Below, in pieces: positions 2,448 through 48,586 of a stretch of DNA of 64,000 nt (position 1 is its first letter; each line of letters begins with the position of its first letter). Below the pieces are notes generated by a model, which was not told the origin of the DNA, ran no database searches, and saw only the letters and a list, made by a program, of their open reading frames with translations. The stretch covers positions 3,470-67,469 of the forward strand of contig QCNV01000003.1 of assembly GCA_003213095.1 (NCBI GenBank), written 5' to 3'. The translations under genes and the position numbers were made by a program. The DNA comes from SAR202 cluster bacterium AG-426-M11 (GTDB lineage Bacteria; Chloroflexota; Dehalococcoidia; Lucifugimonadales; UBA826).

Positions 2448-3506
2448 ATGACATGCAAAAAAGATATAAACCTTAGTGTGGTAGATCAGTCGCCTACTAG
2501 ACGAGACGGTTCCGCTGTAGAGGCATTAAACGAAACTGTTAGACTAGCTCAACATGCTGAAACCCTAGGATATACGAGATATTGGGTCTCTGAACACCAT
2601 AATTCCAATTCATTTTCAGGGACTAGTCCCGAAATTTTAATTGCCCAAATTGCAGCCAACACCAAAACTATCAGAGTTGGCAGTGGCGGAGTAATGTTAA
2701 GTCACTACTCAGCGTTAAAAGTAGCAGAACAATTTAGTATCTTAGATTCTTTTCACCCGAATAGAATCGACCTTGGAATTGGTAGGGCACCGGGTAGTGA
2801 TCGTAGAACTGCAGCTGCCCTTACTTTTCCTAGACCAACTATGGACGTTTTTAATGATTTTCCTCAAATGGTCAATGATCTGTTGGGTTTTCTTAAATCA
2901 ACAATTACTCCTGATAATCCCCTATATGGAATTCAAGCTCAACCCTCATCTAAAAATACTTTTCCTGAAATATGGTTATTAGGATCAAGTGACTTCAGTG
3001 CTAAACTAGCAGCTCAACTAGGTCTCCCATTTAGTTTTGCAGATTTTTTCGGCAACACATCAGACTACGGTCCTAAAATTACTCAAATTTATAGAGAACA
3101 ATTTCAACCATCAGAATATTTGTCAGAGCCTAAAGTTCACATCGGATTACAAGTATTTTGTGCAGATACTGAAGAACAAGCAAAATTTATTGGATCTTCT
3201 AGAAATATTAATAAAATTCTATCTTTGACAGGAAGAGCTCAGTCAGGATTAATACCCCCTGAAGAAGCTACCCAAATAAATCTTACCTTCCAAGAAAAAT
3301 TATATTTAGAACAATCAACTCAAAGTTTCATAGAAGGCGATCCATCACAAGTAGAAATTGGAATTTTGAAATCGTCTGAACGTTATGAAACAAATGAAAT
3401 TGGAATTGTGACAAATTGTTACTATTTTGAGGATAGATTGAAATCTTACGAATTAGTCAGCAAAATATTTAATCAAACATCTGTAGAAAACGTAAAAATC
3501 AATTAG
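2448..3506 (+). CDS. luciferase-like (LLM class) flavin-dependent oxidoreductase, YhbW-like group
   Basis: N-terminal LSVVDQSP...LGYTRYWVSEHHNS...GSGGVMLSHYSALKVAEQF...RIDLGIGRAPGSD matches the conserved LLM group-1 signature. Confidence 0.8.
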   Translation: MTCKKDINLSVVDQSPTRRDGSAVEALNETVRLAQHAETLGYTRYWVSEHHNSNSFSGTSPEILIAQIAANTKTIRVGSGGVMLSHYSALKVAEQFSILDSFHPNRIDLGIGRAPGSDRRTAAALTFPRPTMDVFNDFPQMVNDLLGFLKSTITPDNPLYGIQAQPSSKNTFPEIWLLGSSDFSAKLAAQLGLPFSFADFFGNTSDYGPKITQIYREQFQPSEYLSEPKVHIGLQVFCADTEEQAKFIGSSRNINKILSLTGRAQSGLIPPEEATQINLTFQEKLYLEQSTQSFIEGDPSQVEIGILKSSERYETNEIGIVTNCYYFEDRLKSYELVSKIFNQTSVENVKIN

Positions 3507-22011: not shown

Positions 22012-22046
22012 AAAAGAGCCCATATAATGGACTCTTTTTATTTTTT
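22011..22046. terminator. bidirectional intrinsic terminator between convergent genes
   Basis: AAAAAGAGCCCAT-ATA-ATGGACTCTTTTTATTTTTT is a 9-bp stem with one mismatch, flanked by an A-run and a T-run. Confidence 0.6.
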
Positions 22047-25000
22047 GCGAAACACCTTAGGTAAAGTGGAATGCATAAACTCGTAAGCTATGGGCACGAT
22101 TAGTAAGGTCAAAAAGGTAGAACTTGCCAATCCACCAATTACAACAGTAGCCAAATCTTCACCTATAATTCCGCCACCCTCATTGCCGACAAATGCCGCC
22201 AAAGGAAGTAAGGCCAAACCAGTAGTAAAGGCTGTCATCAATATAGGCCTTAATCTCACCAATCCTCCTTCAACAAGAGCTTCTCTTACTGAAAAATTAT
22301 CGTCACGTAACTGTTGAACAAATGCAATCAAAACAATCGCATTTGTTACAACTAAACCAATAAGTAACAACAATCCCATCATTGCCGGTAAACCTAAAGA
22401 TCGGCCTGTGATAGCTAAGCCAACAAATGCACCAATACTAGCTAAAGGCAAACTAAGTAAAATCACTAAAGAATCCCTCAAAGATCCCAAACTACCTGAA
22501 ACTACCAAAAACACCAGAACTATACTTATGGCCATTGCCAAAAATATATCTTGAAACCCTTCAGCAATATCTGAAAAAATTCCACCCGTTTTAATTTCTA
22601 TTCCATTAGGTAATTCAATAGCATCTATTTCTGCATCTATCGCCATTTGAACAGAACGTGAATCCTCATTGGTGATTTTTCCCGTAATAGTAGCTGAACG
22701 ATTTGTGTCTGTTCTAGCAATAGTAATAGGAGATTCCACTCTGTTCATAGTAACTAACTCACCTATTGTTGCAGATCCTAAAGGACCGTTAATAGATAAA
22801 TTATTGAAACCCTGAAAAGGATCTTGAGCACCATACATAGAAGAAGTAATTAATTTTAATTTCAAATTCACTTCTTCATTATTTAACATTAAATCCCCTA
22901 AATCTTGTCCTTTCATAGGGGCACTGATTGCTATAGCTACCTCTTGAGGTGTCATACCAATAGTTGAAGCAATTGCTGAATTTACAACCAAATTCATCTC
23001 TGGTCTTGTTCCAGTTAAATCTGATTCAATATTATCAACTCCATCTAAGCTTCTTAGAGCTACCAATAATTCATTGTTCACTCTAGATAAGTCCTCTAAA
23101 TCATTACCTACTATTTTTACTTCTACTCCAGGTTGAGGAGGACCAGCTGCATTTAATTCTTCAAATTCATATTGAGTTCCATAACTCTCTGAAGGGAATT
23201 GGTTAGTTAGTATTTCTGCTACATCATCAGGAGCTTCAGAAGTAAGCCTAACGAATATACTAGCAAAACCTCCTACCTCATCAGGATTAGAAAAAACGCC
23301 TGAACCACCTATTGTGGTAACAAAGTTTTCTATCTCACCTCTATCAAGTCTAGATTTCAATTCTTTCTCTAAATCTAAAACTTTAGATAGTTTTTGTTCT
23401 TCGGTAAGTATCGGTGGAACTGAAATATCTACTGCCAAAATCCTTGCTGGACCTGTAGGAAAAAGAGTGACAGGAATCAACCCTAATGCAGGCAAAGAAA
23501 CGCTACCTGCAGTGAGTATCAAAGCTATAAAAATAGTAATAATTTTATGTTGTAAAGACCAAATGAGTGCGGGTTTATAAATCCTTTGTAGAAAAGATAA
23601 ACTATTACCAGTTTTCTCAGTATCTTGAACCATATCCCCAGGTCTCAAAATAGCTGCACCTACTACCGGAACAAAAGTAATCGAAACAATTAAAGAAGCA
23701 AACAATGCTGAAGAAACAGCTATACAAAAAGGTAAAAAGAAGGAGCCTACTAAACCTTGAATGAATGCAAGAGGAGCAAAAACAACTATTGTAGCTAGTG
23801 TTGAAGATGTAATAGCAGCTGCTACTTCTTTTGTAGCAGATAAAGCGGCATCAAATTTTGATTCACCCATTTGCATATGCCGATAAACATTTTCTAAAAC
23901 AACAATACTATCGTCAACAACTCGTCCAACAGCTAAAGCTAAACCGCCTAACGTCATCACATTAAGAGTTAGATCTGTAAAGCCCATAATCAATACACCA
24001 CCTAAAATACTTACAGGAATGGTTAAAGCAATAACTAAGGTGGGTCTCAATGATAATGCTAAACCTTTCATCAAACCTGGTTTAATATTTAACAAAAATA
24101 TAAATACTCCACCAACAGCAAACAAGAATCCATAAATTCCTTCACTGAATAAAGTTTGTAATTGACTTTCTATGTCAGGACCTGCGTTATAAATAACTAC
24201 AGTATCTAACCCTGATTTTTCAGCCTGAGAATTGGCAGAATTTAAAACTGCTTGAGTCACATCCACAGTATTAGCTTCTGGATCCTTAAATACACTGACT
24301 CCTACACTAGGGTTACCATTTGTCCTTGAAATAGAATTTGATGAAGATGGAATTCTGGAAATTGTAGCAACATCTTTTAACAAAACAGGGTTTCCATCCC
24401 TAGATCCAATAGCTATATTCTGTAAATCTTCTAAAGTAGATACAGAATGAGATGTTCTTAGTGAAACCACACCTGTTCCGTCGAAAATAAATCCTGAAGA
24501 CATTGAAAAATTCATTTCGTCAAAAATTTCAGAAATTTTATCTAAACTAATATCATTTTGATAAAGGGATTCTGTATCTGCATTTACATTTACATCAAAT
24601 TTCTGAATTCCACTTATAACAACGTCACTCACTCCATCAATTGATGAAATAGATGGTTCAATTTCTTTAGAAACTATCTCTTGTAATGAATTAATATCAC
24701 CTTCAGTAATAAAACTAAATTCTAGAACTGCTTGTGCACCAGGGTCTAATTTATTTACAGTTGGAGTTTCAACGTTGCTCGGTAAATCCATAGAAACCAA
24801 CCGAGATTCAACTTCTTTTTTCGCAATGTCCATATCAATACCATAGTCATAAAACATCAATAGCAATGTGGAGCCCTCAAAAGTAATCGATTGTACAGAA
24901 TTTAATCCTTCAAGACCTGAAACTTGATTCTCCAATGGTTCAGTTACGTATTGAACTACGTCTTCAGAACCAGCATTTGGGTACGCAGCACTTACTGTTA

Positions 25001-25148
25001 ATAACGGAAATTGAACTCTAGGCAAAACTTCTACAGGTAACTGACTAAATGTAAAAATCCCATAACCTAGCACTAACAAAAATGCCAAAATAGTTACCGA
25101 CGCTCTTTTTAATGCCAAATCAGTAAAGTAAGTCATTGAACTCCTCAA
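22038..25148 (-). CDS. RND efflux transporter permease (AcrB/HAE family)
   Basis: 1036 aa with the 12-TM/2-large-loop RND layout. N-terminus F..LALKRASVTILAFLL..GYG; conserved GLALAVGRVVDDSIVVLENV segment. Confidence 0.9.
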   Translation of the reverse strand: MRSSMTYFTDLALKRASVTILAFLLVLGYGIFTFSQLPVEVLPRVQFPLLTVSAAYPNAGSEDVVQYVTEPLENQVSGLEGLNSVQSITFEGSTLLLMFYDYGIDMDIAKKEVESRLVSMDLPSNVETPTVNKLDPGAQAVLEFSFITEGDINSLQEIVSKEIEPSISSIDGVSDVVISGIQKFDVNVNADTESLYQNDISLDKISEIFDEMNFSMSSGFIFDGTGVVSLRTSHSVSTLEDLQNIAIGSRDGNPVLLKDVATISRIPSSSNSISRTNGNPSVGVSVFKDPEANTVDVTQAVLNSANSQAEKSGLDTVVIYNAGPDIESQLQTLFSEGIYGFLFAVGGVFIFLLNIKPGLMKGLALSLRPTLVIALTIPVSILGGVLIMGFTDLTLNVMTLGGLALAVGRVVDDSIVVLENVYRHMQMGESKFDAALSATKEVAAAITSSTLATIVVFAPLAFIQGLVGSFFLPFCIAVSSALFASLIVSITFVPVVGAAILRPGDMVQDTEKTGNSLSFLQRIYKPALIWSLQHKIITIFIALILTAGSVSLPALGLIPVTLFPTGPARILAVDISVPPILTEEQKLSKVLDLEKELKSRLDRGEIENFVTTIGGSGVFSNPDEVGGFASIFVRLTSEAPDDVAEILTNQFPSESYGTQYEFEELNAAGPPQPGVEVKIVGNDLEDLSRVNNELLVALRSLDGVDNIESDLTGTRPEMNLVVNSAIASTIGMTPQEVAIAISAPMKGQDLGDLMLNNEEVNLKLKLITSSMYGAQDPFQGFNNLSINGPLGSATIGELVTMNRVESPITIARTDTNRSATITGKITNEDSRSVQMAIDAEIDAIELPNGIEIKTGGIFSDIAEGFQDIFLAMAISIVLVFLVVSGSLGSLRDSLVILLSLPLASIGAFVGLAITGRSLGLPAMMGLLLLIGLVVTNAIVLIAFVQQLRDDNFSVREALVEGGLVRLRPILMTAFTTGLALLPLAAFVGNEGGGIIGEDLATVVIGGLASSTFLTLLIVPIAYEFMHSTLPKVFRKK

Positions 25149-25194: not shown

Positions 25195-25695
25195 TCATGA
25201 ATGAAAATTATAAGACTTTAAATGCGTCAAAAAATAATTCAATGCTTTTTCAGTAAAAATAAACATATTTTGTTCTCTGTTTGAAATTCCTGATTCTAAA
25301 GTCATAGATTCGGTAATAGGGCCTACAATCCCGAAACATGAATGCCCAGCAGAATCTCCATAACTATTTCCAGTAGGGCCAGCCGCACCTGTTTCACTTA
25401 AAGCCCAATGAGAATTTAATTTTTCTTTAATTTTTCTTGCATAAAGCAACGCACATTCTTCAGTAGATGATCTGATTCCAATTCGGTCATCATCAGTTAT
25501 ACCTAACAAAGAGTTCTGAGAACTTTTTGTATAAACTACTGCTCCGCCTAGGAAATAAGCCGAGGATCCTGGAATAGCTAATAAAGAAGAAGAAATTAAC
25601 CCTGCTGAAGATGATTCAGCAACTGATATTGTTTGTTGATTATCTTTCAATATTTGACCAATGTCTGAAGATATTTTAAGAATTTCTGAATTCAT
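25195..25695 (-). CDS. CinA C-terminal-type nicotinamide-nucleotide amidohydrolase (PncC-like)
   Basis: ISVAESSSAGLISSSLLAIPGSSAYFLGGAVVYT and SETGAAGP motifs of the CinA/PncC domain. Confidence 0.8.
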   Translation of the reverse strand: MNSEILKISSDIGQILKDNQQTISVAESSSAGLISSSLLAIPGSSAYFLGGAVVYTKSSQNSLLGITDDDRIGIRSSTEECALLYARKIKEKLNSHWALSETGAAGPTGNSYGDSAGHSCFGIVGPITESMTLESGISNREQNMFIFTEKALNYFLTHLKSYNFHS

Positions 25696-25715
25696 TTTTC
25701 CTCCTAATGTGGATA

Positions 25716-26081
25716 TTATTTTACCCGGATTACTTGAAAATCAACTTTTCCATTCTGAACTAAATTTCTGATTTTACGTTGTTTCGTAGTTAAATCACTA
25801 TTTCCTGATTTAAATTCTATTAATATAATTTGATCTTCCTCAAATTGAATACCATCAATTGGAGTTCCCAAAAACCTAAATTGCTTAGAATCCCATGGAA
25901 AAACAGAGTGCAAAGGAATAAATTGTTCTGAAATTTGACCAAATTTCACTGATTGGCTTCTAAGTTTTCTCTTGTAAGAAATAATTATTTTAGAAAAAAA
26001 GTACAAGAAAACCAAACTAACTGAAAGTACGCTTATAAAAATAATCAATAATAATTCTACCAAGGAAAGATGAATCTCCAT
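25716..26081 (-). CDS. membrane-anchored endonuclease related to archaeal Holliday-junction resolvase (COG4741-like)
   Basis: N-terminal TM helix, then GQISEQFIPLH..FPWD...FRFLGTPIDGIQFEE..IILIEFKSG.S.LT.KQ..IR. This follows the E..D..E.K nuclease-fold pattern as I recall the family. Confidence 0.45.
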   Translation of the reverse strand: MEIHLSLVELLLIIFISVLSVSLVFLYFFSKIIISYKRKLRSQSVKFGQISEQFIPLHSVFPWDSKQFRFLGTPIDGIQFEEDQIILIEFKSGNSDLTTKQRKIRNLVQNGKVDFQVIRVK

Positions 26082-32073: not shown

Positions 32074-33210
32074 TTACCACTGAACAAACATAGGCATGAC
32101 TACATGAGTGTATCCGGGTTTACTAATAGACCTTAAAACACCAGGACTAGAAGCACCAGTCATTTCAAAAACAACTTCACCATCACCCAAAACATCTAAA
32201 ACATCGGCTAAATATTTATTGTTGAACGCAATTCTAGATTCCTCATCTATCTCTCCTTCAACCCTAGCATCAATTTCACCCTTATTTTCTCCAAGTTCTT
32301 CAGCTCTAGAAGAAATAGATAATCCAGCAGACTCTCCATTACCAACGATTTGAATCCTAACAATTCCACTTCCATCTCTTGCAAAAATAGATGCAGTTTT
32401 AACAGCATTAGTAAAATCTGAGAGGTCAGCCAATACTTGATTTTTATAATTTTCAGGGATTAATGATCTGTAGTTAGGAAAGGATCCAGGCATTAATTGA
32501 GATACAATTTCCACATTACCAATATTGAATAACGCATGAGTACCCGCTGGTGTTACAGTAAATTCCACTGGAGAAGAATCTGTTCCTATTAGCCTACCAA
32601 TTTCTTGCATCGATCTAGCAGGAATAATGAATTCAAAGTTGTCCTCTATAGAGTCTGATAATTTTCCTTGGTAAACGGCTAATCTAAATCCATCCGCCGC
32701 TGCAAAAGTAAAATCATCATTATTTACTTCAATTTTAATTCCAGTCAGTACAGGTCTAGAATCTTCAGTTGCGGCTGCAAAAGCAACATAATCAACTGTT
32801 TCTTTCAAAATTTGAGGATCAATTTTAATAGTCGAACCCTCATCTACTGTTGGAATTGGAGGGAATTCTGAAGGATCAGTGCCATTTATGTTAGCCTCAA
32901 ATCTTAAACATTTTAAAGTTACACTCATCAAGTCTGCGGAAGATTCTATATCTATTCGGTCATCAGGAAGAGTATTAACAAAGTCTGTAAGTAATCTAGC
33001 AGGGATTGTAATTTCACCCTCTTCTTCAATTTGAGCACCAATCTTTGTAGTGATTGCAATATCTAAATTAGTTCCTGTCAAAACTAACATATCATTTTGA
33101 GTTGAAATTTTAACATTCTGGAGTACAGGTAAATTACTCCTAGTAGCAACAGCTCGTCCTACTATTGCTAATCCTCTACTTAAGTTCTGTTGAAGGCAAG
33201 ATATCTTCAT
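32074..33210 (-). CDS. dnaN: DNA polymerase III beta sliding clamp
   Basis: MKISCLQQNLSRGLAIVGRAV..RSNLPVLQNV..., three-domain length (378 aa), and PVL.GI / ATDG-like (AADGFRLAV) segments. Confidence 0.9.
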   Translation of the reverse strand: MKISCLQQNLSRGLAIVGRAVATRSNLPVLQNVKISTQNDMLVLTGTNLDIAITTKIGAQIEEEGEITIPARLLTDFVNTLPDDRIDIESSADLMSVTLKCLRFEANINGTDPSEFPPIPTVDEGSTIKIDPQILKETVDYVAFAAATEDSRPVLTGIKIEVNNDDFTFAAADGFRLAVYQGKLSDSIEDNFEFIIPARSMQEIGRLIGTDSSPVEFTVTPAGTHALFNIGNVEIVSQLMPGSFPNYRSLIPENYKNQVLADLSDFTNAVKTASIFARDGSGIVRIQIVGNGESAGLSISSRAEELGENKGEIDARVEGEIDEESRIAFNNKYLADVLDVLGDGEVVFEMTGASSPGVLRSISKPGYTHVVMPMFVQW

Positions 33211-33319: not shown

Positions 33320-34087
33320 CTAATTAAGAGAAGCAATAAACTCAATTTCTAAAGTAATTTCATCTTCTAAAGAAAGAATAAAAGGAAATGTGGGTTTTGT
33401 TAAATTAAAGTCATCCCAGGTGATCACAGTTGATGCTAAACCAGAAACTTCTGAACCATCAAAATTCAAATCTGTAGTCCATTTAGTATTTTTTGAAACG
33501 CCTGAAATAATTAAATCACCTATGATTCCAATATTATAATTACCTTGATTAGGAACAGGATTTGGTAAACCAACAATGTCTTGAACCTCTAGTAATACTT
33601 CCTTACCAATTCCTGAGTTTCTTAATACCCATCTGTCTCTTCTATCTTCGTCACTTTTCAAGGCAGTCACATCTACTAAGATTTTTGAATCATCTACAAC
33701 ATTCCCCATTTCATCAATACTAATAGTTCCAGATACTAATCCAGTTTCACCTGTAGCTACTATTGGCAAAGGCAACCTAACAAGTTCTTCACCAATTTTG
33801 TACCTAGCTTTTGATAATGGGTTAACAACAATTTGGATTGATTGTTGTTTTGAGTCGTCAAAAATAATTTGAGGTGTACTTTGTGGCTGATTTTGATCTA
33901 AATTCTGTATTGTAGGCGTAGGAAGCAATTTCCCTACAGTTGGAGTGGGAAGTACAGTTTTTTGAACCGTAGTATTTTCAATACTAGAAACAACTTCTGT
34001 GACAGTATTGGTATCAGAACAAGAAATAAATACCGAAATTAATAAAAATGGTACTAAAAATAAATTCCCAATATTTTTAATTTTCAA
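33320..34087 (-). CDS. YceI-like lipoprotein
   Basis: Signal peptide with Cys (LLISVFISCSD). The C-terminal half fits the YceI pattern (G.VSGTISID..., DVTALKSDEDRRDRWV, GDLIISGVSKNT.W). TTG 34087 follows the upstream stop and an AGGA SD; the track ATG 34150 would overlap the upstream gene. Confidence 0.55.
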   Translation of the reverse strand: MKIKNIGNLFLVPFLLISVFISCSDTNTVTEVVSSIENTTVQKTVLPTPTVGKLLPTPTIQNLDQNQPQSTPQIIFDDSKQQSIQIVVNPLSKARYKIGEELVRLPLPIVATGETGLVSGTISIDEMGNVVDDSKILVDVTALKSDEDRRDRWVLRNSGIGKEVLLEVQDIVGLPNPVPNQGNYNIGIIGDLIISGVSKNTKWTTDLNFDGSEVSGLASTVITWDDFNLTKPTFPFILSLEDEITLEIEFIASLN

Positions 34088-34098
34088 TTGAATCCTGT

Positions 34099-34587
34099 TT
34101 ATTGAACTGTAATTGTACCTACCATTCCTAATGTCTCGTGAGGAACACATATCAATGTATAAACACCAGGCTTATCAAAAGTGAAAGTTAAAGTGTCAGT
34201 CTCACCGCCTTCAACTTCTACTTCTATTCCTAAATCATCGACCACAAAAGAATGAAATTCATTTTCAGACGATAAATTAAATTGAACTGTTTCACCAGTT
34301 GTAAATGTTAAATCGCCAGGTTCAAACACATAATTACCTCCAGCATCATTCATTGCAACATCAATCACCTTATCTGCAGTGGCTGTAGTTGATGAGCTTG
34401 AGGAAGACGAGGAAGAAGCAGGAGCTGATACAGGAGCTGGAGGAGCTGTCATCACTGAAGCAGAAGAAGCACTTGTTTGAGGAACAGGTGCGGGATCTAC
34501 AGCATCATGGTCTTCATTTTGAGGAACACATGCCGCAAAAATCATTAAAATAGACATCAATGAAATTACACTAACCAACTTTGTCAT
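34099..34587 (-). CDS. cupredoxin (plastocyanin/amicyanin-like blue copper) lipoprotein
   Basis: Signal peptide + Cys (MIFAACV), then a Pro/Ala/Ser-rich linker with a poly-Ser run. Type-1 Cu ligands are present: H in NEFHSFVV and C-x2-H-x4-M in LICVPHETLGM. Confidence 0.75.
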   Translation of the reverse strand: MTKLVSVISLMSILMIFAACVPQNEDHDAVDPAPVPQTSASSASVMTAPPAPVSAPASSSSSSSSSTTATADKVIDVAMNDAGGNYVFEPGDLTFTTGETVQFNLSSENEFHSFVVDDLGIEVEVEGGETDTLTFTFDKPGVYTLICVPHETLGMVGTITVQ

Positions 34588-34743: not shown

Positions 34744-34766
34744 GAATTAAACCGTATTTGGAGAAA

Positions 34767-35414
34767 ATGATGAAAAGACCATTATCTAAAAGGCAGCAAG
34801 AAATGCTGGCTTACATTAAAAACTTTATGCAAACTAATAACTACCCTCCTACTGTTAGGGATATACAAAATGGCTGTCAAATCAGTTCCACATCAGTGGT
34901 CGACTACAATCTCCAAATCCTACAAAGAGAGGGGCACCTAGCAAGAAAAAGAGATGTATCAAGAGGACTAGAGTTATTAGGCGAAGCAGCCAGTCATTCA
35001 TTGAGAAATTTAGTCAATGTTCCCATTCTAGGAAACATTGCTGCAGGAGAACCATTGGCTTTACAGGGAACGGGGCCATGGAATAATGAAGATTTTGATA
35101 ATGTAGATATTCCTCCTTTTTTAACCAAAAATAAAGAAAATGTATTTGGACTTCGTGTAAAAGGTGAATCCATGATTGATGCTCTAGTCGGAGACGGAGA
35201 TCTCGTCTTGCTAGAACCAATTACTAAACCTAATAACGGAGACATGGTCGCTGCTTGGCTAGAAGATAGAGAGGAAGCTACATTAAAACATTTCTATTTA
35301 GAAGGAAACAAAGTTAGGCTTGTGCCTGCAAATTCTATGATGCAACCAATTACAGTTTCAGCTTCTAATGTAGCTGTAAAAGGTAGAGTTGTAGGTGTAA
35401 TGAGGACCATGTGA
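34767..35414 (+). CDS. lexA: LexA repressor
   Basis: N-terminal winged-helix (LSKRQQEMLAYIKNF...GYPPTVRDI) and a C-terminal S24 peptidase with GESM (Ser) and VKGRVVGV (Lys). ATG 34767/34770 follows GGAG. Confidence 0.9.
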   Translation: MMKRPLSKRQQEMLAYIKNFMQTNNYPPTVRDIQNGCQISSTSVVDYNLQILQREGHLARKRDVSRGLELLGEAASHSLRNLVNVPILGNIAAGEPLALQGTGPWNNEDFDNVDIPPFLTKNKENVFGLRVKGESMIDALVGDGDLVLLEPITKPNNGDMVAAWLEDREEATLKHFYLEGNKVRLVPANSMMQPITVSASNVAVKGRVVGVMRTM

Positions 35415-39309: not shown

Positions 39310-40104
39310 CTAATGCTTTGCAAAAATTGAATATCTCTCAATAATTTGGGAAGGCAATATAAAAGGTTCAGGTGAAGTTGATAAAAGCCAATTGAGAACT
39401 GACAAACCATAACCTTTGGGATAAGTTCTTACTCCATCAGAATTATCAACTACTTCTATTCCCCATCCAGAATTCATAAAATCAACAGGAATAATTAAAC
39501 CTTCACTGATCTTAGAAATGTAAGAATTCATGTTAGCTTGTGAAATCCACGGCTTGTACATCAACCACATATCTAAATCAGTTCTGAAAATTTGAGTATT
39601 ATTGATGATTGAAAATAAGTCTCTCACAAAAAATTGATCGCCAATGATTTGCCTATCAGTTGGATTAACAATTGAATCAGAAAAATATTCATTAACATAT
39701 GCCCACCATTTTAAACTTCTGTAAGTAGGTGAAACAGGATCAACACCTACTTCCATACACATTTTTTGAATAAATTCATTCATTTGAAATAATTGTTTAA
39801 ATTGAGATTGAGGAATCCCAAATTTATTTAATATTTCAAAATCACCCCAATCAACAATCAAATGTTCAGGGCCAGAAATTTGATTTGAGTAATTTTTTAG
39901 TCGCCTTTTATATGCAGACAAAGTTCTAGGGGGTAATGATATTTTATACCTGGATTGGAGAAAATTATGTCCAAAAGAATTTTTCCAATTATTTTGTTCC
40001 CAAGCTAATAGTAATCCAATTTGTTGGCAATCATTTAGTGCAGATTGAAAACCTTTTTTCCCATCCTTCCAATTACTAACGCCTTTAGGATTTATTGTTG
40101 CCAT
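39310..40104 (-). CDS. hypothetical protein (264 aa), no recognisable family
   Basis: Uninterrupted ORF with codon usage like its neighbours. No SD upstream. Confidence 0.5.
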   Translation of the reverse strand: MATINPKGVSNWKDGKKGFQSALNDCQQIGLLLAWEQNNWKNSFGHNFLQSRYKISLPPRTLSAYKRRLKNYSNQISGPEHLIVDWGDFEILNKFGIPQSQFKQLFQMNEFIQKMCMEVGVDPVSPTYRSLKWWAYVNEYFSDSIVNPTDRQIIGDQFFVRDLFSIINNTQIFRTDLDMWLMYKPWISQANMNSYISKISEGLIIPVDFMNSGWGIEVVDNSDGVRTYPKGYGLSVLNWLLSTSPEPFILPSQIIERYSIFAKH

Positions 40105-41854: not shown

Positions 41855-41906
41855 TAAATAACCTCATTTAAGGTCATTTAAGCAGATTAAAGATAAATAA
41901 TAAACA

Positions 41907-41938
41907 ATAAGGGCTACTTTGTGTTAAGTAGCCCTTAT
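41907..41938 (-). terminator. intrinsic terminator after the coiled-coil gene pair
   Basis: Perfect 13-bp stem ATAAGGGCTACTT/AAGTAGCCCTTAT with a 6-nt loop, 23 nt past the stop, followed on the minus strand by a U-rich tract (UGUUUAUUAUUUAU). Confidence 0.65.
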
Positions 41939-41960
41939 TTCAATACTTATAGCTTAAAAT

Positions 41961-44936
41961 TTAATTTCCAGAACCTGATAGTTGTGTAGCAATATCTAAT
42001 ACTGAAGACAAATCAGTTACCGCAACGGGTGCATTTTCAATTTGTTCAACATTCTGAATAGCACCATTAATGACACTCAATAATCCATATTCAGCTTGTC
42101 TATCCAAATCTTTGACTCTAGCTTGAATATCTGTCAATTGCTGTTTCAGTTCATCTTGTTCAGAGTATAAATTTTCCAACTCATCCCATTTAACAGAAAT
42201 CTGGCCCTGAATATCATCTGCTACAGATTGAAGAGGCATAATATGTTCAGCAATTCTAGCTTGTTTTTCTTCTTCTAATTTTTCTATTTGGGCATTAATT
42301 TCATCTTCAAAAGCTTTCTCAGCTTCTTGTTTTTTGGCTTCAAGATACTCATATTCATTTTGAATTTCCCTATCTAAGTTCCTGAACATCTCTTGTTCTT
42401 GATCAGCGTAATTATCCCAGGCGTCGTCCATAGCGTCATGAATGATTTTTTCTTGCTCATATCTCCAATCATCAAGTTCACTCCACAACCTATCATTGAA
42501 AACATGTCTTTCTTGGTCTCTTTGTTCTTTCATTTCATTCAAACCTATGCGCTGTTTATCTAGCATTTGGTATTCTCTTTCAAGAGCTTTAAACTGCTTG
42601 TGGATAGGTTTCATTAATTTTTCGACTTCTCTCCACTCATCATGAATACTATCTAATTCTTTATGAACTTCTCTCAATTCTTTTTCTATTATTTCTCTGC
42701 CTTTCTTATCATCTTTATGAGAATTTTCTCTTTCCTCGTTGAGCTGTCTAATTGATTCTTCAACTGCTGCAATCTGATTTTGTAATGTTTCCTCTATAGC
42801 ATTATTAGCATTACTAGCCCCGTAATACTTTTCATCAATTATAGCTATCTGACTTATGCGAGTATTCTCTGCTTCTATTTTTTGTTGCTGTAGTTGTTGT
42901 TCTAAAGCATTAACATCTACTGATGTTTGATTAGATCCCATTAGTTTTACTTCTAAAACATCACCTTCCCAGAAGTTTTCCCAAGGAGTTGTGCCTAAAG
43001 TGTAAGAATGCGCTAACCATTGTCCAGCTACAGGAGTAACAGGCTGTAATACCCAAAGTCCTTCTTTATGTGAATAAATGTAACAAAACTCATACTGTGA
43101 ACCTTGTGCTCCACAATCTTTTTTAACCCACATTGGGTGTCCATTAAATTCACCTTGTTCAACATAGTCCCCAGCATAATGAGTAGCACCACCTTCAAAA
43201 ATAGCTCTAATCCATTTTCCATTTGTAGATGAATTTTTCTGATGATTAATTAATTCAATTTTATTTTGAAGTTCTTCATTCAGCTGATTAATTATGTTTT
43301 GGTATTCTTCAAGTCTTGCATATGCCGCAGTAACTTCTGGACCAGACACATTAGCAGCACCACCAATATCAGCAGCAGACTGTTGTAATTCTTGCAATTT
43401 AGAATCTAATGGCTGAATTTCTTGAGTCAGCATATTGATTTGATTTAATAAGGCTAAATGCTGCGGGTTTTCAGTAGTAACTTCGGAACCAGCAACAAAT
43501 TGCGGTACCTGAGTCAATTGAGCTTCTAAATCAGATATACCAAGAGTAATCTCAGGAATATTTGGATTGTCTATCATATCATTTCTTCCATCACCGTCTG
43601 TATCAGTAGTACTTTCTATTTGTTGAGGTAGAAGAGACAAGATAGCTTTCTTATCTTCAATCTGTGTCATCAAATCAGTGTACGCTGGATTAGGTTGAGG
43701 GTCAGTAGTGTATGTAGCTGGAATTGTCTCTAAGTTTTGATTAAGCAAATTTATTTCAGCATATCGATTATCAATTTCAGCAATTAATTGGCTTATTTCC
43801 ACATTAATATTAGCGTTAGCTTGAGTTTGAGACTGTACATTCGTTTCTAATTGTTGAATGAAATTCATTTCATTCTCTTTCTTCATTTCTAAGTCTGCAA
43901 TTTGGTTTGCTGTTGAGACTTTAAGTGCCTCTATTTGCGCCAAATTTGATGAGGAATCAGCAGCAGCCGAATTAGTTTCATAAGCTGTATTTCTCTGTGA
44001 TTCTATTTGTTGAATCGTAGAGTGAAAATTATCCCAAACAGCCTCAACTTCTTGGTCATACATACTCCAATCCACTTGTGTTACATTAGTCGCAGCTGTA
44101 GTGGATGTGTCAGCAGATGACCAGACTACTTCTAATTGATGATACAAATCATCTAATTCTTTTTGTTTTTCTTCAAATAGATCATCATAGTAATCCATTG
44201 ATTTTGCATCAGAATTTTTTCGCCAATCTTGCTCGTCTAATTGGTCTCTTAATGCTCTTTCTTTGTCTTCCCAAATTTCGCGCCTATCGTCAAGTTCCAT
44301 CATTTGATCATCAAATGCCATATTTTGTTCATCCAATGAAATTCTAATTTGATCTAATTTAAAATAAGCTTCTTTAATAGCATTTTTCTGTAAACGATAT
44401 TCGTTATTATTTTCCCATTCTTCCATGGCAATATGATTTTGTTTCTCTCTTTGACGAAGCTCACCTTCAAATGCTTCCCACATTAGATGATTTTGCTCAT
44501 CTAATTGATCTCGTATTTGCTCCAATTCCTCATCTAGAGCGTCATAACGAGCTTCAATTGAATCCTCAAAAGCTTCAAATTCTTCATTTACCATCTCATC
44601 AAATCTTTCTCTAGCTTCATCTTCATTCAAGAATAGGGTTTGATGTTCAGTAGACATGTCATTTTCAAATTCTTGTCCAATTAATTCAGCTTGCTGATTA
44701 ATAATGTCAAGTTCCTCTTCTAAAGATTCTATTTCTTGTTCGATAGGTTGAATCCGTGAATCTAAATCAGAAATTTGCTGAACCAATGGATCTACTTCAT
44801 TTGTTTGTATTTCTAAAATTTGTGACCTCAAATCCAGAACAGATTGAGCAGCTTCCGCATCTACAACGCCACATGCAATCATAGAGAAACAAATAGATAA
44901 AATACCAATAATTCTCAAACCGATTTTGTTTAACAT
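41961..44936 (-). CDS. giant acidic coiled-coil lipoprotein, paralogue A (991 aa)
   Basis: Signal peptide ending in SMIAC-G, then a long D/E/Q-rich heptad-like sequence. The N-terminal ~300 aa and C-terminal ~250 aa are collinear with paralogue B. AGGAG SD. Confidence 0.7.
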   Translation of the reverse strand: MLNKIGLRIIGILSICFSMIACGVVDAEAAQSVLDLRSQILEIQTNEVDPLVQQISDLDSRIQPIEQEIESLEEELDIINQQAELIGQEFENDMSTEHQTLFLNEDEARERFDEMVNEEFEAFEDSIEARYDALDEELEQIRDQLDEQNHLMWEAFEGELRQREKQNHIAMEEWENNNEYRLQKNAIKEAYFKLDQIRISLDEQNMAFDDQMMELDDRREIWEDKERALRDQLDEQDWRKNSDAKSMDYYDDLFEEKQKELDDLYHQLEVVWSSADTSTTAATNVTQVDWSMYDQEVEAVWDNFHSTIQQIESQRNTAYETNSAAADSSSNLAQIEALKVSTANQIADLEMKKENEMNFIQQLETNVQSQTQANANINVEISQLIAEIDNRYAEINLLNQNLETIPATYTTDPQPNPAYTDLMTQIEDKKAILSLLPQQIESTTDTDGDGRNDMIDNPNIPEITLGISDLEAQLTQVPQFVAGSEVTTENPQHLALLNQINMLTQEIQPLDSKLQELQQSAADIGGAANVSGPEVTAAYARLEEYQNIINQLNEELQNKIELINHQKNSSTNGKWIRAIFEGGATHYAGDYVEQGEFNGHPMWVKKDCGAQGSQYEFCYIYSHKEGLWVLQPVTPVAGQWLAHSYTLGTTPWENFWEGDVLEVKLMGSNQTSVDVNALEQQLQQQKIEAENTRISQIAIIDEKYYGASNANNAIEETLQNQIAAVEESIRQLNEERENSHKDDKKGREIIEKELREVHKELDSIHDEWREVEKLMKPIHKQFKALEREYQMLDKQRIGLNEMKEQRDQERHVFNDRLWSELDDWRYEQEKIIHDAMDDAWDNYADQEQEMFRNLDREIQNEYEYLEAKKQEAEKAFEDEINAQIEKLEEEKQARIAEHIMPLQSVADDIQGQISVKWDELENLYSEQDELKQQLTDIQARVKDLDRQAEYGLLSVINGAIQNVEQIENAPVAVTDLSSVLDIATQLSGSGN

Positions 44937-44960
44937 AACCTGCTCCTATCCTATTTATTA

Positions 44961-47390
44961 CTAATCATTGTTAGTTGGTAAATCCAATATTGAATCAAAT
45001 CCTATAGCTCTTCCTGTTCCACCTGCTTCGATTTGATCCACATTCTGAATAGCATCATTTATGACACTAAGAAGTCCAAATTCTGCTTGTCTGTCCAATT
45101 CTTGGACTCTAGCCTGCAAAGATTCCAACTGTGATTTATATTGTTCTTGAGTTTGATACAAAGAATCCAATTGTGCGAATTTTGCATCAATCTGAGATTC
45201 TAGATCTCTTGCCTGTGCTTCCAAAGGCCCAATTGTATCTTCATAAATTCTTTCTTTTTCATTTTCTATCTCAAGCCTTGAAGTTCTTTCTTGATCCTTA
45301 AATGCTTTTTCACTATCTTTCCTCTTTTGATCTAAAGCATCTCGCTCGTCTTCCATATTTTGTTCTAATTCTTTTCTCATCACTTTCATTTCATCTTCTA
45401 GATCATCCCATCTCTGGTCAGTCAAATCTCGAATTTCTTTCTCGCGAACCTTCATCCATTTTTCAAATTCACCCCAAGTTTGTTCACGAATCCTTTGATC
45501 ATCTTCATCACCTGACTGTTGTTGCTGCATTTCTAACATCATGCTTTCTTTATCTAGAGCCATTTGTTGTTTTCTAATGGGGCGTTCTCGTCGCTCCAAT
45601 TCTTTCTGTTGATCCCTAAGAGGATCAATTTGAGATTCTAAATTTCGTATTCTAGTTTGCATTTCTTTAGCACGTTGTTCACGATTCTTATGGAATTTAT
45701 GCATTTTGTCTTCCATTAACTCAATTTCATCTTCCAATGCTTTAATTTGTGACTTCAAGCCAGCAGCAGCGGCGGGCTCATTCGCATTATTCGTTCCATA
45801 ATATGAATTATCTATAGCAGCAATAGCATTTTCTCTCTTTGATAGTGCATTAGATTCAAGTATAGCTAACTCATTTTCTAACGCTGTCAAATCAACAGTA
45901 CTTTGATTTGAAAAATCAGTAGGCTGTGTAGCAGCTTCATCTTTTTTACTTTGAAGTTCTGTGTTTAGCTCATTTATCACTGCATTCAATTCGTCTCGCT
46001 TAGAAACAAGAGCTGTCAATTCAGGGTTAGAATCTGAAGAATTAGTATTAAGTTGATCTAATTCAGCATTTTTGGCTTCAATTTGAGAGTCTTTAAAGTT
46101 GATATCTTGTTCTATACCTTCTATAGAAGATTCATTCTGTGCAATTTGTTGTATCAATGCAGCATAATCAGGATTATCTACACCATCAATCTGCTGAGGA
46201 GTATTAGATAAAGAATCTTGAGCAGCGGTTTTTGTATTTCTCAATTCATCTAAGTTAGTGCGTGCATTTTCTATCTCAAATTTCAAAGCCTCAATTTCAG
46301 AAATTAGTGCGCTTTTTGCGCTTGAAGTAGAATTGCCAGATGCTGACAAACTATCTATTTCATTTTGTATTTGATTCACTTGATCTTTATAGTCTGAAAT
46401 TTTGGAAACATACTCTTGTTCTATAACTGAAATATCCTTCACAGCAGCAGCAGCATCAGCTTGGTTCTGAGCAGCATAAGCTTGTGACCTACGATCTTGA
46501 ATATTCTGAATCTCATTATGATATTCATTCCAGGCATTATCTATTTCAGAATCATAATTACTCCAATCTTTAGCAGGAGCAAAACTTGTACTTGATTGAT
46601 TAAAAGAATCCCAAGCTAACTGTAATTGATCGTGCAAACTATCTAAAAGTTTCCTTCTGTTCCTAATGTCTTCATCCATACCCTCAAAACTACGATCATC
46701 CCAAATATCACTATTTTGCCTATGAAGATTCTCTATTTGATCATACAAAGGCTGTAGTTGCTCGTCGAGAATCATTCGCTGTTCTTGAATTTCCATGCTT
46801 TGAAAATTCAATTCCATCCTTACAGCATCAATCTTCTTTCTTGCCACATTAAAAGGACTATTATTTCTTAATTCATTTTCTAATTTTCTAGTCTCATCTT
46901 CCTTGTCTCTTCTTTCATCATCCCATGCATCCCAGATCTTTTTATTCTCATCATCAACTTCTTCTCTTCTTTCATCCATCTCATCGTCAAGATCATTCCA
47001 TTGAGACTTATGGTCATCGTCCATTTGTCGCCATTGTTCATCTAAATCTTCGTAGAATTTTTCTCTGGCTTCATCTTGACCCAAAAACATAAATTCAAAT
47101 TTTTCGCGCATTTCATCTTCAAAGGATCGACCAATTTCTTCGCCTTGTCGAAACAAATCTTCTCGTTGATTCTCTAATTCTTCAATTTCTGATTCAATTG
47201 GATCTATTTGAGTTTGAAGTTCTTCTAACTGAGCCATTAAAGGATCAACTTCGTTAGTTTGTATATCCAAAATTTGTGATCGAATATCAACAACATCTTG
47301 AGCAGCTTCGGAGTCAACAATTCCACATGCCATAAAAGCAGTAGCAATCATCAAGGAGCCAACTATTTTCAAAACTGTGTTTTTCAACAT
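44961..47390 (-). CDS. giant acidic coiled-coil lipoprotein, paralogue B (809 aa)
   Basis: Signal peptide ending in FMAC-G. Shared blocks with A include AAQ.V.D.RSQIL.IQTNEVDPL and RQAE.GLLSVIN.AIQNV.QIE. Confidence 0.7.
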   Translation of the reverse strand: MLKNTVLKIVGSLMIATAFMACGIVDSEAAQDVVDIRSQILDIQTNEVDPLMAQLEELQTQIDPIESEIEELENQREDLFRQGEEIGRSFEDEMREKFEFMFLGQDEAREKFYEDLDEQWRQMDDDHKSQWNDLDDEMDERREEVDDENKKIWDAWDDERRDKEDETRKLENELRNNSPFNVARKKIDAVRMELNFQSMEIQEQRMILDEQLQPLYDQIENLHRQNSDIWDDRSFEGMDEDIRNRRKLLDSLHDQLQLAWDSFNQSSTSFAPAKDWSNYDSEIDNAWNEYHNEIQNIQDRRSQAYAAQNQADAAAAVKDISVIEQEYVSKISDYKDQVNQIQNEIDSLSASGNSTSSAKSALISEIEALKFEIENARTNLDELRNTKTAAQDSLSNTPQQIDGVDNPDYAALIQQIAQNESSIEGIEQDINFKDSQIEAKNAELDQLNTNSSDSNPELTALVSKRDELNAVINELNTELQSKKDEAATQPTDFSNQSTVDLTALENELAILESNALSKRENAIAAIDNSYYGTNNANEPAAAAGLKSQIKALEDEIELMEDKMHKFHKNREQRAKEMQTRIRNLESQIDPLRDQQKELERRERPIRKQQMALDKESMMLEMQQQQSGDEDDQRIREQTWGEFEKWMKVREKEIRDLTDQRWDDLEDEMKVMRKELEQNMEDERDALDQKRKDSEKAFKDQERTSRLEIENEKERIYEDTIGPLEAQARDLESQIDAKFAQLDSLYQTQEQYKSQLESLQARVQELDRQAEFGLLSVINDAIQNVDQIEAGGTGRAIGFDSILDLPTNND

Positions 47391-47599
47391 GAAAAATCCT
47401 TTATTTTATTTCAATAAATTATCTAGGACAATTCTACTACCTAACTTGCCATCATTCTAGACACTACACAATTATTGCACTAATCATTTTTTTTGTGACG
47501 AGTATGAATACTCAAAAAAAACAAGTAAAACCACCTGTACGTAGATTTGTTGATAATCAACAGCCTTTAAACTATAGTTTTTTCATAATTCATCATTGA

Positions 47600-48046
47600 T
47601 TGGGTAATAATTTGACTGAATACAGCGAAAAATTTAAATACACAGTTAGGGTAAGATGGAGCGAATGTGACGTTCAGGGTGTTGTTTACTACGGAACTTA
47701 CCTAGACTACATTCACGTAGTGATGGATGAGTATTTCCGAGATATGGGCTTTCTGTTAATGATGGAGGAGGAAAGAAAAATACTTGATTTAGCTGCAGTA
47801 AAAGTTTCTCTAGAGTACAAACATTCTGCACGAATTGACGATTTAGTCGATCTTAGATTCGCAATTACTAAAATAGGAAATACCAGTGTTACCACATCAA
47901 TAAATTTTTATCGCACTTCTGACCAAAAACTTTTAACCACAGGTGAAGTTATATATGTTAACTTTGACTCTGAATCAGGAGAAGCAAAACCTGTTCCTCA
48001 AAAAATTAGACAAATAGTTAATGAATACGAAGGAACAAATTTCTAA
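47600..48046 (+). CDS. hotdog-fold acyl-CoA thioesterase (YbgC/4HBT family)
   Basis: VRVRWSECDVQGVVYYGTYLDY matches the V.VR.EDTD..G.V....Y signature. TTG start. Confidence 0.8.
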   Translation: MGNNLTEYSEKFKYTVRVRWSECDVQGVVYYGTYLDYIHVVMDEYFRDMGFLLMMEEERKILDLAAVKVSLEYKHSARIDDLVDLRFAITKIGNTSVTTSINFYRTSDQKLLTTGEVIYVNFDSESGEAKPVPQKIRQIVNEYEGTNF

Positions 48047-48058
48047 ACAGGAGTACAA

Positions 48059-48586
48059 ATGTCTGAAAAACAATACAGTCAAGCACCAAAAATGGAAATA
48101 GATCCAACAAAAAAATATCAAGCAATTATTGAACTTGAAAAAGGGGGAACAATTACTATTGATCTTTTGGCTGCTGAAGCACCAAAAACAGTAAATAATT
48201 TCATTTTCTTGTCTCGTGACGGATATTACAACGGAGTTACCTTTCACAGAGTAATTCCTGGATTCATGGCCCAAGGCGGAGACCCCACAGGAACTGGAAT
48301 GGGAGGGCCTGGATATACATTTGACGATGAATTTCACCCCAATGCTAGGCATGATTCTCCTGGCATATTGTCAATGGCAAATGCAGGAACAAGAAACGGA
48401 ATGGGAACAAATGGAAGTCAATTTTTTATTACTTTTGTACCTACTCCACATCTAGATAACGCTCACTCAGTTTTTGGTAAAGTGGTAGATGGAATGGATA
48501 TAGTTTTGGGGATTTCCGAAAGAGACCCAGGGTCTTCTAAAACACCTGGAGATGCAATTAAGTCAATATCTATTTCTGAATCTTAA
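48059..48586 (+). CDS. cyclophilin-type peptidyl-prolyl isomerase
   Basis: [37 protein letters not shown] and FGKVVDGMD. Confidence 0.9.

Follow-up and report, generated by a model that had tools for sequence, protein, structure and literature searches.

The A-B gene pair and its protein family

In the dark ocean, SAR202 bacteria count among the most abundant bacterial groups; their envelope is essentially uncharacterised at the molecular level. Here we describe two adjacent genes, A and B, carried by SAR202 cluster bacterium AG-426-M11 on contig QCNV01000003.1 of assembly GCA_003213095.1, within a stretch of 64,000 nucleotides (nt; positions 3,470 to 67,469 of the contig) that we refer to as the window. 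A and B encode paralogous, strongly acidic proteins that quite probably fold back on themselves as long antiparallel coiled-coil hairpins, and that would be held at the outer face of the cytoplasmic membrane by a lipidated N-terminal cysteine. The features of the pair, all on the minus strand, are as follows in window coordinates.

44961..47390, minus strand: gene A, an open reading frame (ORF) of 809 amino acids (aa) encoding an acidic lipoprotein-type protein, predicted coiled-coil hairpin with a short tip and without the insert module
47325..47390, minus strand: A signal peptide (aa 1-21) and lipobox Cys22 (FMAC-G)
46200..47324, minus strand: A N arm (aa 23-397), predicted heptad, then Trp-rich hendecad, then further helices (from periodicity, length covariation and mirrored insertions and deletions)
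46164..46202, minus strand: A apex turn (aa 397-409), TPQQIDGVDNPDY, placed by midpoint and register scan
45033..46163, minus strand: A C arm (aa 410-786), with the top-conserved motif LDRQAEFGLLSVINDAIQNV (aa 765-784, nt 45039..45098)
44937..44960, minus strand: A-B spacer of 24 nt, with an AGGAG ribosome-binding site 6 nt before the B ATG
41961..44936, minus strand: gene B, an ORF of 991 aa, paralogue of A with a longer tip and an inserted beta module
44871..44936, minus strand: B signal peptide (aa 1-21) and lipobox Cys22 (MIAC-G)
43563..43631, minus strand: B apex region (aa 436-458), LPQQIESTTDTDGDGRNDMIDNP, with a DxDxDGxxDxxD loop as candidate Ca2+ site, placed by midpoint analysis
42933..43220, minus strand: B all-beta, Cys/Trp-rich module (aa 573-668), missing from A and most family members
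42033..42932, minus strand: B C arm after the module (aa 669-968), including LDRQAEYGLLSVINGAIQNV (aa 944-963)
41906..41939, minus strand: intrinsic terminator of the A-B operon, 14-bp stem with 5 GC pairs, 6-nt loop and T-rich tail
47391..47599, minus strand: intergenic region 5' of A, common to the divergent thioesterase gene; presumed site of the A-B promoter

The two co-oriented genes, their spacer and the AGGAG site lie exactly where the initial annotation of this DNA had put them. The terminator that it called after the gene pair is also present, with a stem of 14 rather than 13 bp; the hairpin has a folding energy of -23.9 kcal/mol (z = -5.6 relative to dinucleotide shuffles). In the region 5' of A, a promoter scan returned sigma-70-like matches at 47499..47471 and 47431..47403, a frequency not above chance, and the A-B promoter is therefore only presumed to lie in 47391..47599. 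The same annotation labelled the proteins 'giant', which is overstated for 809 and 991 aa.

Its description of their composition holds. Aspartate and glutamate make up 23% of A and 21% of B and glutamine and asparagine 16%, giving net charges of -91 and -124 and a mature pI of 4.3. The two proteins are collinear paralogues as had been claimed: aligned by BLASTP, residues 1-482 of A and 1-559 of B are 30% identical (E=1e-62), and residues 494-806 of A and 668-984 of B are 36% identical (E=2e-51). The ratio of nonsynonymous to synonymous substitution rates (dN/dS, omega) relative to the 81%-identical orthologues of locus L009 is 0.137 for both A and B. Judged by this ratio, A and B are functional protein-coding genes under purifying selection. 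An earlier argument for their importance, that they occupy 5.4 kb of a compact genome, is weak; a better one is the omega of about 0.14 together with retention across SAR202 lineages whose GC content spans 34-59%.

At the start of both proteins, a basic n-region is followed by a hydrophobic core and then a lipobox. The lipoprotein-type signal peptides first recognised at FMAC-G and MIAC-G are borne out by the family, in which the sequence CG[IVLM][IV]D directly follows the hydrophobic core, and the Cys-Gly junction is kept, in 91 of 91 recovered N-termini. The residue at -1 of the lipobox is small (A, G or S) in every member, and the family alignment shows no variation at C22, G23, D26 and E28. 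Thus the signal peptide, on whose presence the earlier reading depended, is retained throughout, and the proteins combine it with an invariant lipobox cysteine at +1, as bacterial lipoproteins do. Lipoboxes also occur on other exported proteins of the same contigs, namely an ABC substrate-binding protein at L001 and a cupredoxin-like protein in the window. Neither lgt nor lspA is encoded in the window or at the retrieved loci. A and B would be lipidated at the N-terminal cysteine and reside on the outer face of the cytoplasmic membrane.

The family extends well beyond this genome. In an exhaustive HMMER search, 1.84 billion representative proteins yielded 68 matches, of which about 10 are full-length family clusters and the others fragments or matches to the B insert alone. 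A metagenome scan recovered 106 relatives, from samples that are apparently all marine; these yielded 116 family ORFs (74 of them complete; 18 representatives at about 70% identity) on loci of 34-59% GC. The pair itself was found in metagenome-assembled genomes named 'SAR202 cluster bacterium' and 'uncultured Chloroflexi' in a scan of GTDB species genomes, and the members of the NCBI clusters are hypothetical proteins of Dehalococcoidia or Chloroflexota. The family is therefore restricted to one lineage and widespread within marine SAR202.

Among 40 loci with enough flanking sequence to decide (near-duplicates included), 23 carry a tandem pair and 17 a single copy, which argues that two subunits are not intrinsic to the function. 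First-gene (A-type) and second-gene (B-type) copies form separate clades that span lineages only 34-41% identical; the duplication is thus old and both copies have been kept. A second clade, of 47-50% GC and with a spacer of about 220-240 nt, has a tandem pair of its own, and on these sequences tandem duplication arose at least twice. Two individual loci deviate. At L041:3971-6589 (plus strand) the second gene of the pair is split into ORFs of 469 and 403 aa, 4 nt apart, by a frameshift that made it a pseudogene or by an assembly error. A high-GC member at L015:5445-8261 (P0012) carries a GFDNPDGGDGQ repeat tail after the conserved C-terminal motif, and no other member has such repeats.

As the initial annotation had reported, neither protein matches a characterised family in Pfam, NCBIfam, PADLOC or the Protein Data Bank (PDB). 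Pfam, NCBIfam and PADLOC returned sub-threshold coiled-coil noise only (SMC, Rad50, ASRP, JetC, LmuB, PspA, CLZ and others), and homology to SMC proteins, M proteins or S-layer anchors, which that annotation had raised, was not found. Matches to SMC, Rad50, JetC and LmuB models cover the arms alone and fall far below cut-off (TIGR02168, 47.8 bits against 567; Rad50 models, 16-35 against 700-1087); we found no ATPase head, no hinge and no SMC_N Pfam match, and the PADLOC models JetC and LmuB did not exceed 25 bits for A and had no match in B. One cluster (P0002) is named 'chromosome segregation ATPase' by the Joint Genome Institute (JGI), a name that is a coiled-coil artefact. Periplasmic adaptors (HlyD, AcrA, EmrA) were rejected because no HlyD-family Pfam model matched at E<=1 and AlphaFold2 predicts beta structure only in the B insert. 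S-layer anchors were rejected on the absence of an SLH match, the score of the SlaB model NF040788 (8.5 bits against 700) and the absence of a C-terminal hydrophobic segment, and PspA/IM30/Vipp1 on 11.2 bits for PF04012 against a cut-off of 33.9. The Pfam and NCBIfam scans likewise found no signature of Braun's lipoprotein (Lpp).

PDB sequence matches of the family profile are weak and comprise apolipoprotein A-I (ApoA-I), a designed helical bundle and helices of viral fusion proteins. The ApoA-I match, the best of these (E=7e-4, 21 bits), covers about 135 positions over a hendecad segment and has no Pfam apolipoprotein match beside it; it is best explained by a common 11-residue periodicity. 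Among the papers searched, none pairs SAR202 with coiled coils, and neither the family nor the module has a name in any database.

Architecture of the coiled-coil arms

The N-terminal and C-terminal blocks of these proteins are related to each other. Aligned as profiles, they give an hhalign probability of 96.7% (E=3e-10), which points to an internal duplication, and both start with 'DPL-x13-P[IL]'. The middle block, a control of equally helical composition, reaches at most 5% against either. Hydrophobic periodicity is far above that of shuffled sequences and follows the same layout in both arms, with heptad and hendecad stretches alternating. In A, the N part has a heptad stretch at about 29-98 and a hendecad stretch (3.67-residue period) at about 71-168, and the C block has heptads at 533-616, hendecads at 631-700 and heptads again at 701-770; the layout of B is the same. 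The repeats had been described as heptad-like, which is right for part of each arm and leaves out the hendecads. The conserved tryptophans that had been singled out are real, and they recur at spacings of 11 or 22 residues inside the hendecad stretches.

An AlphaFold2 model of B is nearly all helix (mean predicted local distance difference test score, pLDDT, 69.7). Its N half has several helices of about 65-80 residues, its C arm a single one of 256 residues (713-968). Foldseek searches with this full-length model found local likeness to antiparallel arms (MukB, JetC, condensin and the cohesin elbow) and to PrgA, at template-modelling (TM) scores of at most 0.15. The predicted TM-score (pTM) of 0.42 signals low global confidence, and a monomer prediction tends to fold helices back anyway; evidence for a hairpin that is independent of AlphaFold was therefore sought.

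Such evidence comes from chain lengths. In 16 of 20 representatives, whose spans from the lipobox Cys to the C-terminal LDRQAEFG range over 739-1008 residues, the midpoint of that span coincides with one common turn motif, L-x-x-[TL]P-x-x-I-[ED]-G with a D-rich stretch after it. In A, the apex turn lies within about 5 residues of the Cys22-L765 midpoint. With the chain divided at conserved landmarks, the membrane-proximal N segment (A 22-200; 161-251 residues in the family) varies in length together with the proximal C segment (A 590-765; 155-247 residues), with r=0.978 (permutation p<=5e-6, relatedness among members being ignored by the permutations), whereas all other segment pairs have r<=0.37. 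A test on whole arms was blurred by three members without the apex motif and by expansion of tip repeats in four long members, and the proximal-only test resolved the relation.

Individual insertions and deletions (indels) are mirrored as well. Positions in the N arm are counted from the lipobox Cys, and those in the C arm backwards from LDRQAEFG.

L034: N arm +7 at 107, +58 at 129, +7 at 158; C arm +7 at 95, +59 at 103-114, +6 at 137
L037: N arm +7, +21, +7; C arm +7, +22, +6
L047: N arm +14, -7, +16; C arm +14, -4, +17

Most of the sizes lie near multiples of 7 or 11. Gene conversion between the two related blocks would keep the same order in both, so the mirrored order speaks against it. 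A scan of A for mirrored hydrophobic register peaked with the apex at residue 403-406, above all 200 shuffles. Compensating, mirrored length changes and a turn at the midpoint, the marks of an antiparallel hairpin, are thus both found in the family.

Some observations weigh against a hairpin, besides the low confidence of the model and the phylogenetic blindness of the permutations. The register scan of B was not significant, and two chains paired as an antiparallel dimer would account for the length covariation no less well than one chain folded back. The conserved turn at the exact midpoint favours the intramolecular hairpin over pairing between two chains. Taken together, we consider an antiparallel pairing of N arm and C arm in these proteins to be likely. 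In a hairpin of this kind both termini, the most conserved parts, would sit at the membrane, and what had been called the diverged centre would be the distal tip. With about 375 residues per arm in A and about 415 in B, a straight rod would measure about 56-62 nm, or less if it is kinked at the predicted breaks.

The distal tip and the module inserted in B

The tip consists of 1-3 helix-turn units of the type '[TL]PxxI ... NPxY' and is the least constrained region of the proteins, with omega of 0.44-0.74 over B 391-480. The variability of the centre, already noted in the initial annotation, therefore stands, and the centre of B additionally holds a 96-aa all-beta insert that has no counterpart in A.

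The apex of B and of several orthologues carries DTDGDGRNDMID (B aa 445-456), which fits the calcium-loop pattern DxDxDGxxDxxD. This motif appears in 0.25% of shuffled family sequences, and there is no domain-level match to it; we regard the loop as a candidate Ca2+ site. The pattern, reminiscent of dockerin and TSP3 loops and also of EF-hands, sits at the exact apex of the predicted hairpin and in some genomes occurs in both paralogue types (first genes of L005 and L009). It has been deleted in A of the window and replaced in the B copy of L009, which indicates that the tip turns over rapidly.

The insert (aa 573-668) is found only in B of the lineage formed by the window, L005 and L009. It is predicted to be a self-contained, all-beta unit (AlphaFold2 pLDDT 88.3, pTM 0.82) with the motif Y-G-Y...NG-P-W...C...CYIY...WVLQP-PP...WLANAY...PW-G-W, and it is the most constrained part of B (98% identity, omega about 0.01). 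Its two conserved cysteines are as expected for an extracytoplasmic domain. No match was found in Pfam, NCBIfam or PHROG, and tblastn against GenBank phages returned nothing. A word-indexed protein search with the module profile likewise came back empty. Sequence matches in the PDB were bromodomain noise at E of about 0.2, and the best Foldseek match there had E=1.0. The one match in BFVD, a protein of an uncultured phage, is marginal (E=0.086, query-normalised TM-score 0.52).

The module recurs in at least 25 other proteins, at times in two or three copies. Its hosts include proteins with MORN repeats, leucine-rich repeats (LRRs), a transglutaminase-like core, NAGPA, or a beta-propeller of lactonase type (P0021, P0028, P0037, P0052, P0053, P0060, P0067 and P0073). 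Several module-bearing proteins start with a signal peptide, and several coiled-coil proteins end in the module. This unnamed Cys/Trp beta module looks like a widespread, undescribed family of extracellular domains.

One host is viral. P0029, a 481-aa protein encoded at L016:4873-6318 (plus strand; IMGVR_UViG_3300021791_000001), has an N-terminal hydrophobic segment, then a coiled coil with 'YDDS/T' repeats, and the module at its C-terminus. It was found by a single-sequence scan, the module alignment being too degenerate for the scan of viral contigs. Its gene lies two genes downstream of a portal gene on a 64.7-kb IMG/VR phage contig that also carries ribonucleotide reductase and exonuclease genes. 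P0029 may be a phage fibre whose tip domain is common to SAR202 protein B. Because the same module ends this fibre-like coiled-coil protein of a phage, the module of B probably binds a ligand.

Genomic neighbourhood and proposed place in the cell envelope

Beside A, a divergent 4HBT-type thioesterase and a cyclophilin peptidyl-prolyl isomerase are encoded at window 47600-48586 (plus strand), and they also adjoin the family gene at L001, L005, L013 and L014. This synteny persists across lineages of 34-41% GC down to 31% protein identity. Neither protein has a signal peptide, and we draw no functional link between them and the family. On the other side, a Trp-rich ORF of 264 aa without a Pfam match lies at 39310-40104 (minus strand), between a DUF7124-like gene and a gamma-glutamyltranspeptidase gene. 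At L001-L004 it does not occupy the syntenic position, and a gene for a YHYH-domain lipoprotein follows the pair instead.

Farther off, at 22038-25148 (minus strand), the window of this monoderm lineage encodes a 1036-aa transporter of the AcrB/AcrD/AcrF family of resistance-nodulation-division (RND) proteins (Pfam E=1.4e-186). Directly upstream of it there is no evident adaptor or outer-membrane factor gene, only small unrelated ORFs at 25195-26081. Two adjoining small predicted lipoproteins are encoded at 33320-34150 and 34099-34587 (both minus strand), just upstream of dnaN (32074-33210). The 162-aa one of these two has a Ser/Pro-rich linker and a C-terminal C-x-P-H-x4-M, and is cupredoxin-like by motif reading only. 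Next to the pair of small lipoproteins, the ORF at 34758-35414 is LexA-like by eye only.

SAR202 isolates are monoderm, lack peptidoglycan synthesis genes and bear a layer outside the membrane that recalls an S-layer (PMC10444878). The marine Dehalococcoidia radiation lost peptidoglycan at its base (PMC10284905). Gene structure, paralogy, constraint, the invariant lipobox and the length covariation behind the hairpin are shown by the sequences; lipidation itself, the orientation of A and B relative to the membrane, their oligomeric state, their partners and their physiological role are what we infer here. The roles listed in the initial annotation, namely an envelope ruler or scaffold, a surface layer anchor, a cation-binding matrix or an adhesin, stay plausible as a list. 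Analysis of the family suggests that A and B may be envelope struts or tethers between the membrane and the surface coat, a reading that we find the most plausible and place somewhat short of an even chance. The proteins would be exported by way of the lipoprotein signal peptide and tethered to the cytoplasmic membrane, on its outer face, by the N-terminal Cys; there each chain would fold back, N arm pairing with C arm, into a two-stranded coiled-coil hairpin. The resulting polyanionic strut or tether would occupy and set the space between membrane and coat, its tip contacting the coat or the outside. Alternatively, it would run through the coat as a fibril whose distal contact is made by the variable tip and, in B, by the beta module. 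The gene would have been duplicated in the low-GC clade, and B would have gained its longer tip and the 96-aa beta module, which probably binds a ligand.

A more specific version, which we hold to be unlikely, makes the family a bacterial counterpart of archaeal S-layer stalks, lipid-anchored and built as an antiparallel hairpin. Arm length, changing in units of 7 or 11 residues, would then set the width of the pseudo-periplasm, and the B module would either dock onto the coat or serve as a recognition site for SAR202 phages by way of the phage's own copy of the module.

Several findings speak against a strut of this kind. A straight hairpin of 55-60 nm exceeds the periplasm of about 40 nm measured in Tepidiforma. 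The neighbourhood of A and B consists of metabolic genes, and no gene for an envelope or S-layer component was found nearby. Finally, the family was found only on SAR202-type contigs and so cannot be a general envelope solution of wall-less Dehalococcoidia.

The same length suits another arrangement, in which the rods are surface fibrils that extend through or beyond the coat, serving as an adhesin or as a protective brush, with the tip and the B module binding particles, polymers, cells or phages as receptor or decoy. A rod of 55-60 nm exceeds typical envelope spacing, the distal tip evolves fastest and varies in length and repeat number, and the B module is common to a phage fibre-like protein and to secreted MORN, LRR and transglutaminase-like proteins; the closest solved architecture beyond SMC arms is moreover a surface protein of enterococci, PrgA. 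Most members, however, have no globular binding domain, their tip being just 1-3 short helix-turn units, and no ligand is indicated. Exposed fibrils appear somewhat unlikely; this reading overlaps with that of a strut, and the two are not exclusive. It is quite improbable that the proteins instead lie flat on the outer leaflet, as antiparallel dimers or chains anchored at both ends that form an exoskeleton parallel to the membrane and support the shape of the wall-less cell. Disc-shaped cells without peptidoglycan do occur among SAR202 isolates, pairing of two antiparallel chains would give the same length covariation, and the conserved C-terminal FGLLSVINGAI is hydrophobic and amphipathic and could bind membrane. 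The hendecads and the weak ApoA-I profile match also recall helices on lipid surfaces, but that match has only 21 bits, and extremely acidic helices with a narrow hydrophobic stripe fit poorly to an anionic membrane. The conserved Pro/Gly/Asp-rich turn at the chain midpoint is better suited to an intramolecular hairpin.

With net charges of -91 and -124, 21-23% D+E, and a DxDxDGxxDxxD loop at the apex of several members, the rods could also be imagined as a polyanionic, cation-buffering matrix that gathers Mg2+, Ca2+ or trace metals in place of teichoic acids. We think this very unlikely: strict register, mirrored 7- and 11-residue indels and conserved termini point to a defined architecture, the Ca-type loop is lost sporadically, including in A of the window, and acidity is common in marine surface proteins. 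Adaptors of the AcrA, EmrA or HlyD type come to mind because AcrA-type proteins are lipoproteins with an antiparallel coiled-coil hairpin, and the window has an AcrB-family gene that could supply a transporter partner. That a family without lipoyl, beta-barrel or membrane-proximal domains, and without a HlyD-family Pfam match, acts in this way is hardly credible; the RND gene lies 17 kb from the pair, other loci show no synteny between it and the family, and the hairpin is about ten times longer than those of known adaptors. A cytoplasmic SMC-like protein, a 'chromosome segregation ATPase' or a defence protein such as Wadjet JetC or Lamassu LmuB, was suggested by low-scoring matches to SMC, Rad50, JetC and LmuB arms, by the Foldseek matches to MukB, JetC and condensin, and by the JGI name. 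The scores are far under the cut-offs and concern arms only, TM-scores are at most 0.15, neither ATPase head nor hinge is present and the lipoprotein signal is invariant, so that this possibility is effectively refuted.

The family would supply a first concrete candidate for one of the major structural components at the surface of SAR202 cells. Testable handles are a rod with a predicted length of 55-60 nm, to be sought in tomograms, the conserved base next to the membrane and the variable tip. The compensating-indel signature is unusually clean, and makes the topology of a hairpin readable from metagenomic sequences alone. The 96-aa beta module, common to secreted bacterial proteins and a marine phage fibre-like protein, may mark an interface of host-phage recognition.

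Among known systems, the best Foldseek match outside SMC proteins (E=8.8e-3) is PrgA of Enterococcus faecalis pCF10 (PDB 6Z9L), like A and B a long antiparallel coiled-coil stalk predicted or known to be anchored at the surface of a monoderm cell, which in PrgA presents a globular domain. With no sequence similarity and a TM-score of 0.08-0.10, the likeness is an architectural analogy only. PrgA, which acts in surface exclusion during conjugation, has a CAP-type head and a C-terminal LPXTG wall anchor; A and B have an N-terminal lipobox instead. SMC, MukB and Rad50 arms are likewise intramolecular, antiparallel, two-stranded coiled coils of about 50 nm with interruptions, and compensating indels in both arms are typical of them too. 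They belong, however, to cytoplasmic ABC-type ATPases with head and hinge, whereas A and B have neither, carry an export signal and have mutually homologous arms.

Archaeal S-layer stalks, SlaB of Sulfolobus and tetrabrachion of Staphylothermus, are membrane-anchored coiled coils that space the protein surface layer in cells without peptidoglycan (PMC6911244). These stalks are parallel trimers or tetramers with a C-terminal transmembrane helix, in contrast to the predicted antiparallel hairpins with N-terminal lipobox of A and B. The SlaB model gives A and B only its 8.5 bits against 700. Tetrabrachion uses hendecad (11-residue) coiled coils, a periodicity that A and B show as well. ApoA-I and other proteins with 11-mer amphipathic repeats have the 3.67-residue periodicity as well; A and B differ in the extreme acidity of their polar faces, and their mirrored indels indicate pairing of helix with helix rather than wrapping of lipid.

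Lpp is a short parallel trimer of 58 aa that in diderms joins peptidoglycan to the outer membrane. As predicted for A and B, it is a coiled coil with a lipidated N-terminus, and its length sets the spacing of the envelope (PMC7156740). A and B bear no sequence relation to it and are predicted hairpins of 800-1000 aa in a monoderm without peptidoglycan. A surface-anchored antiparallel coiled-coil stalk is thus an already known kind of object. What is new in A and B is anchoring through a lipobox, internally duplicated arms, the heptad/hendecad layout, the host lineage and the inserted module.

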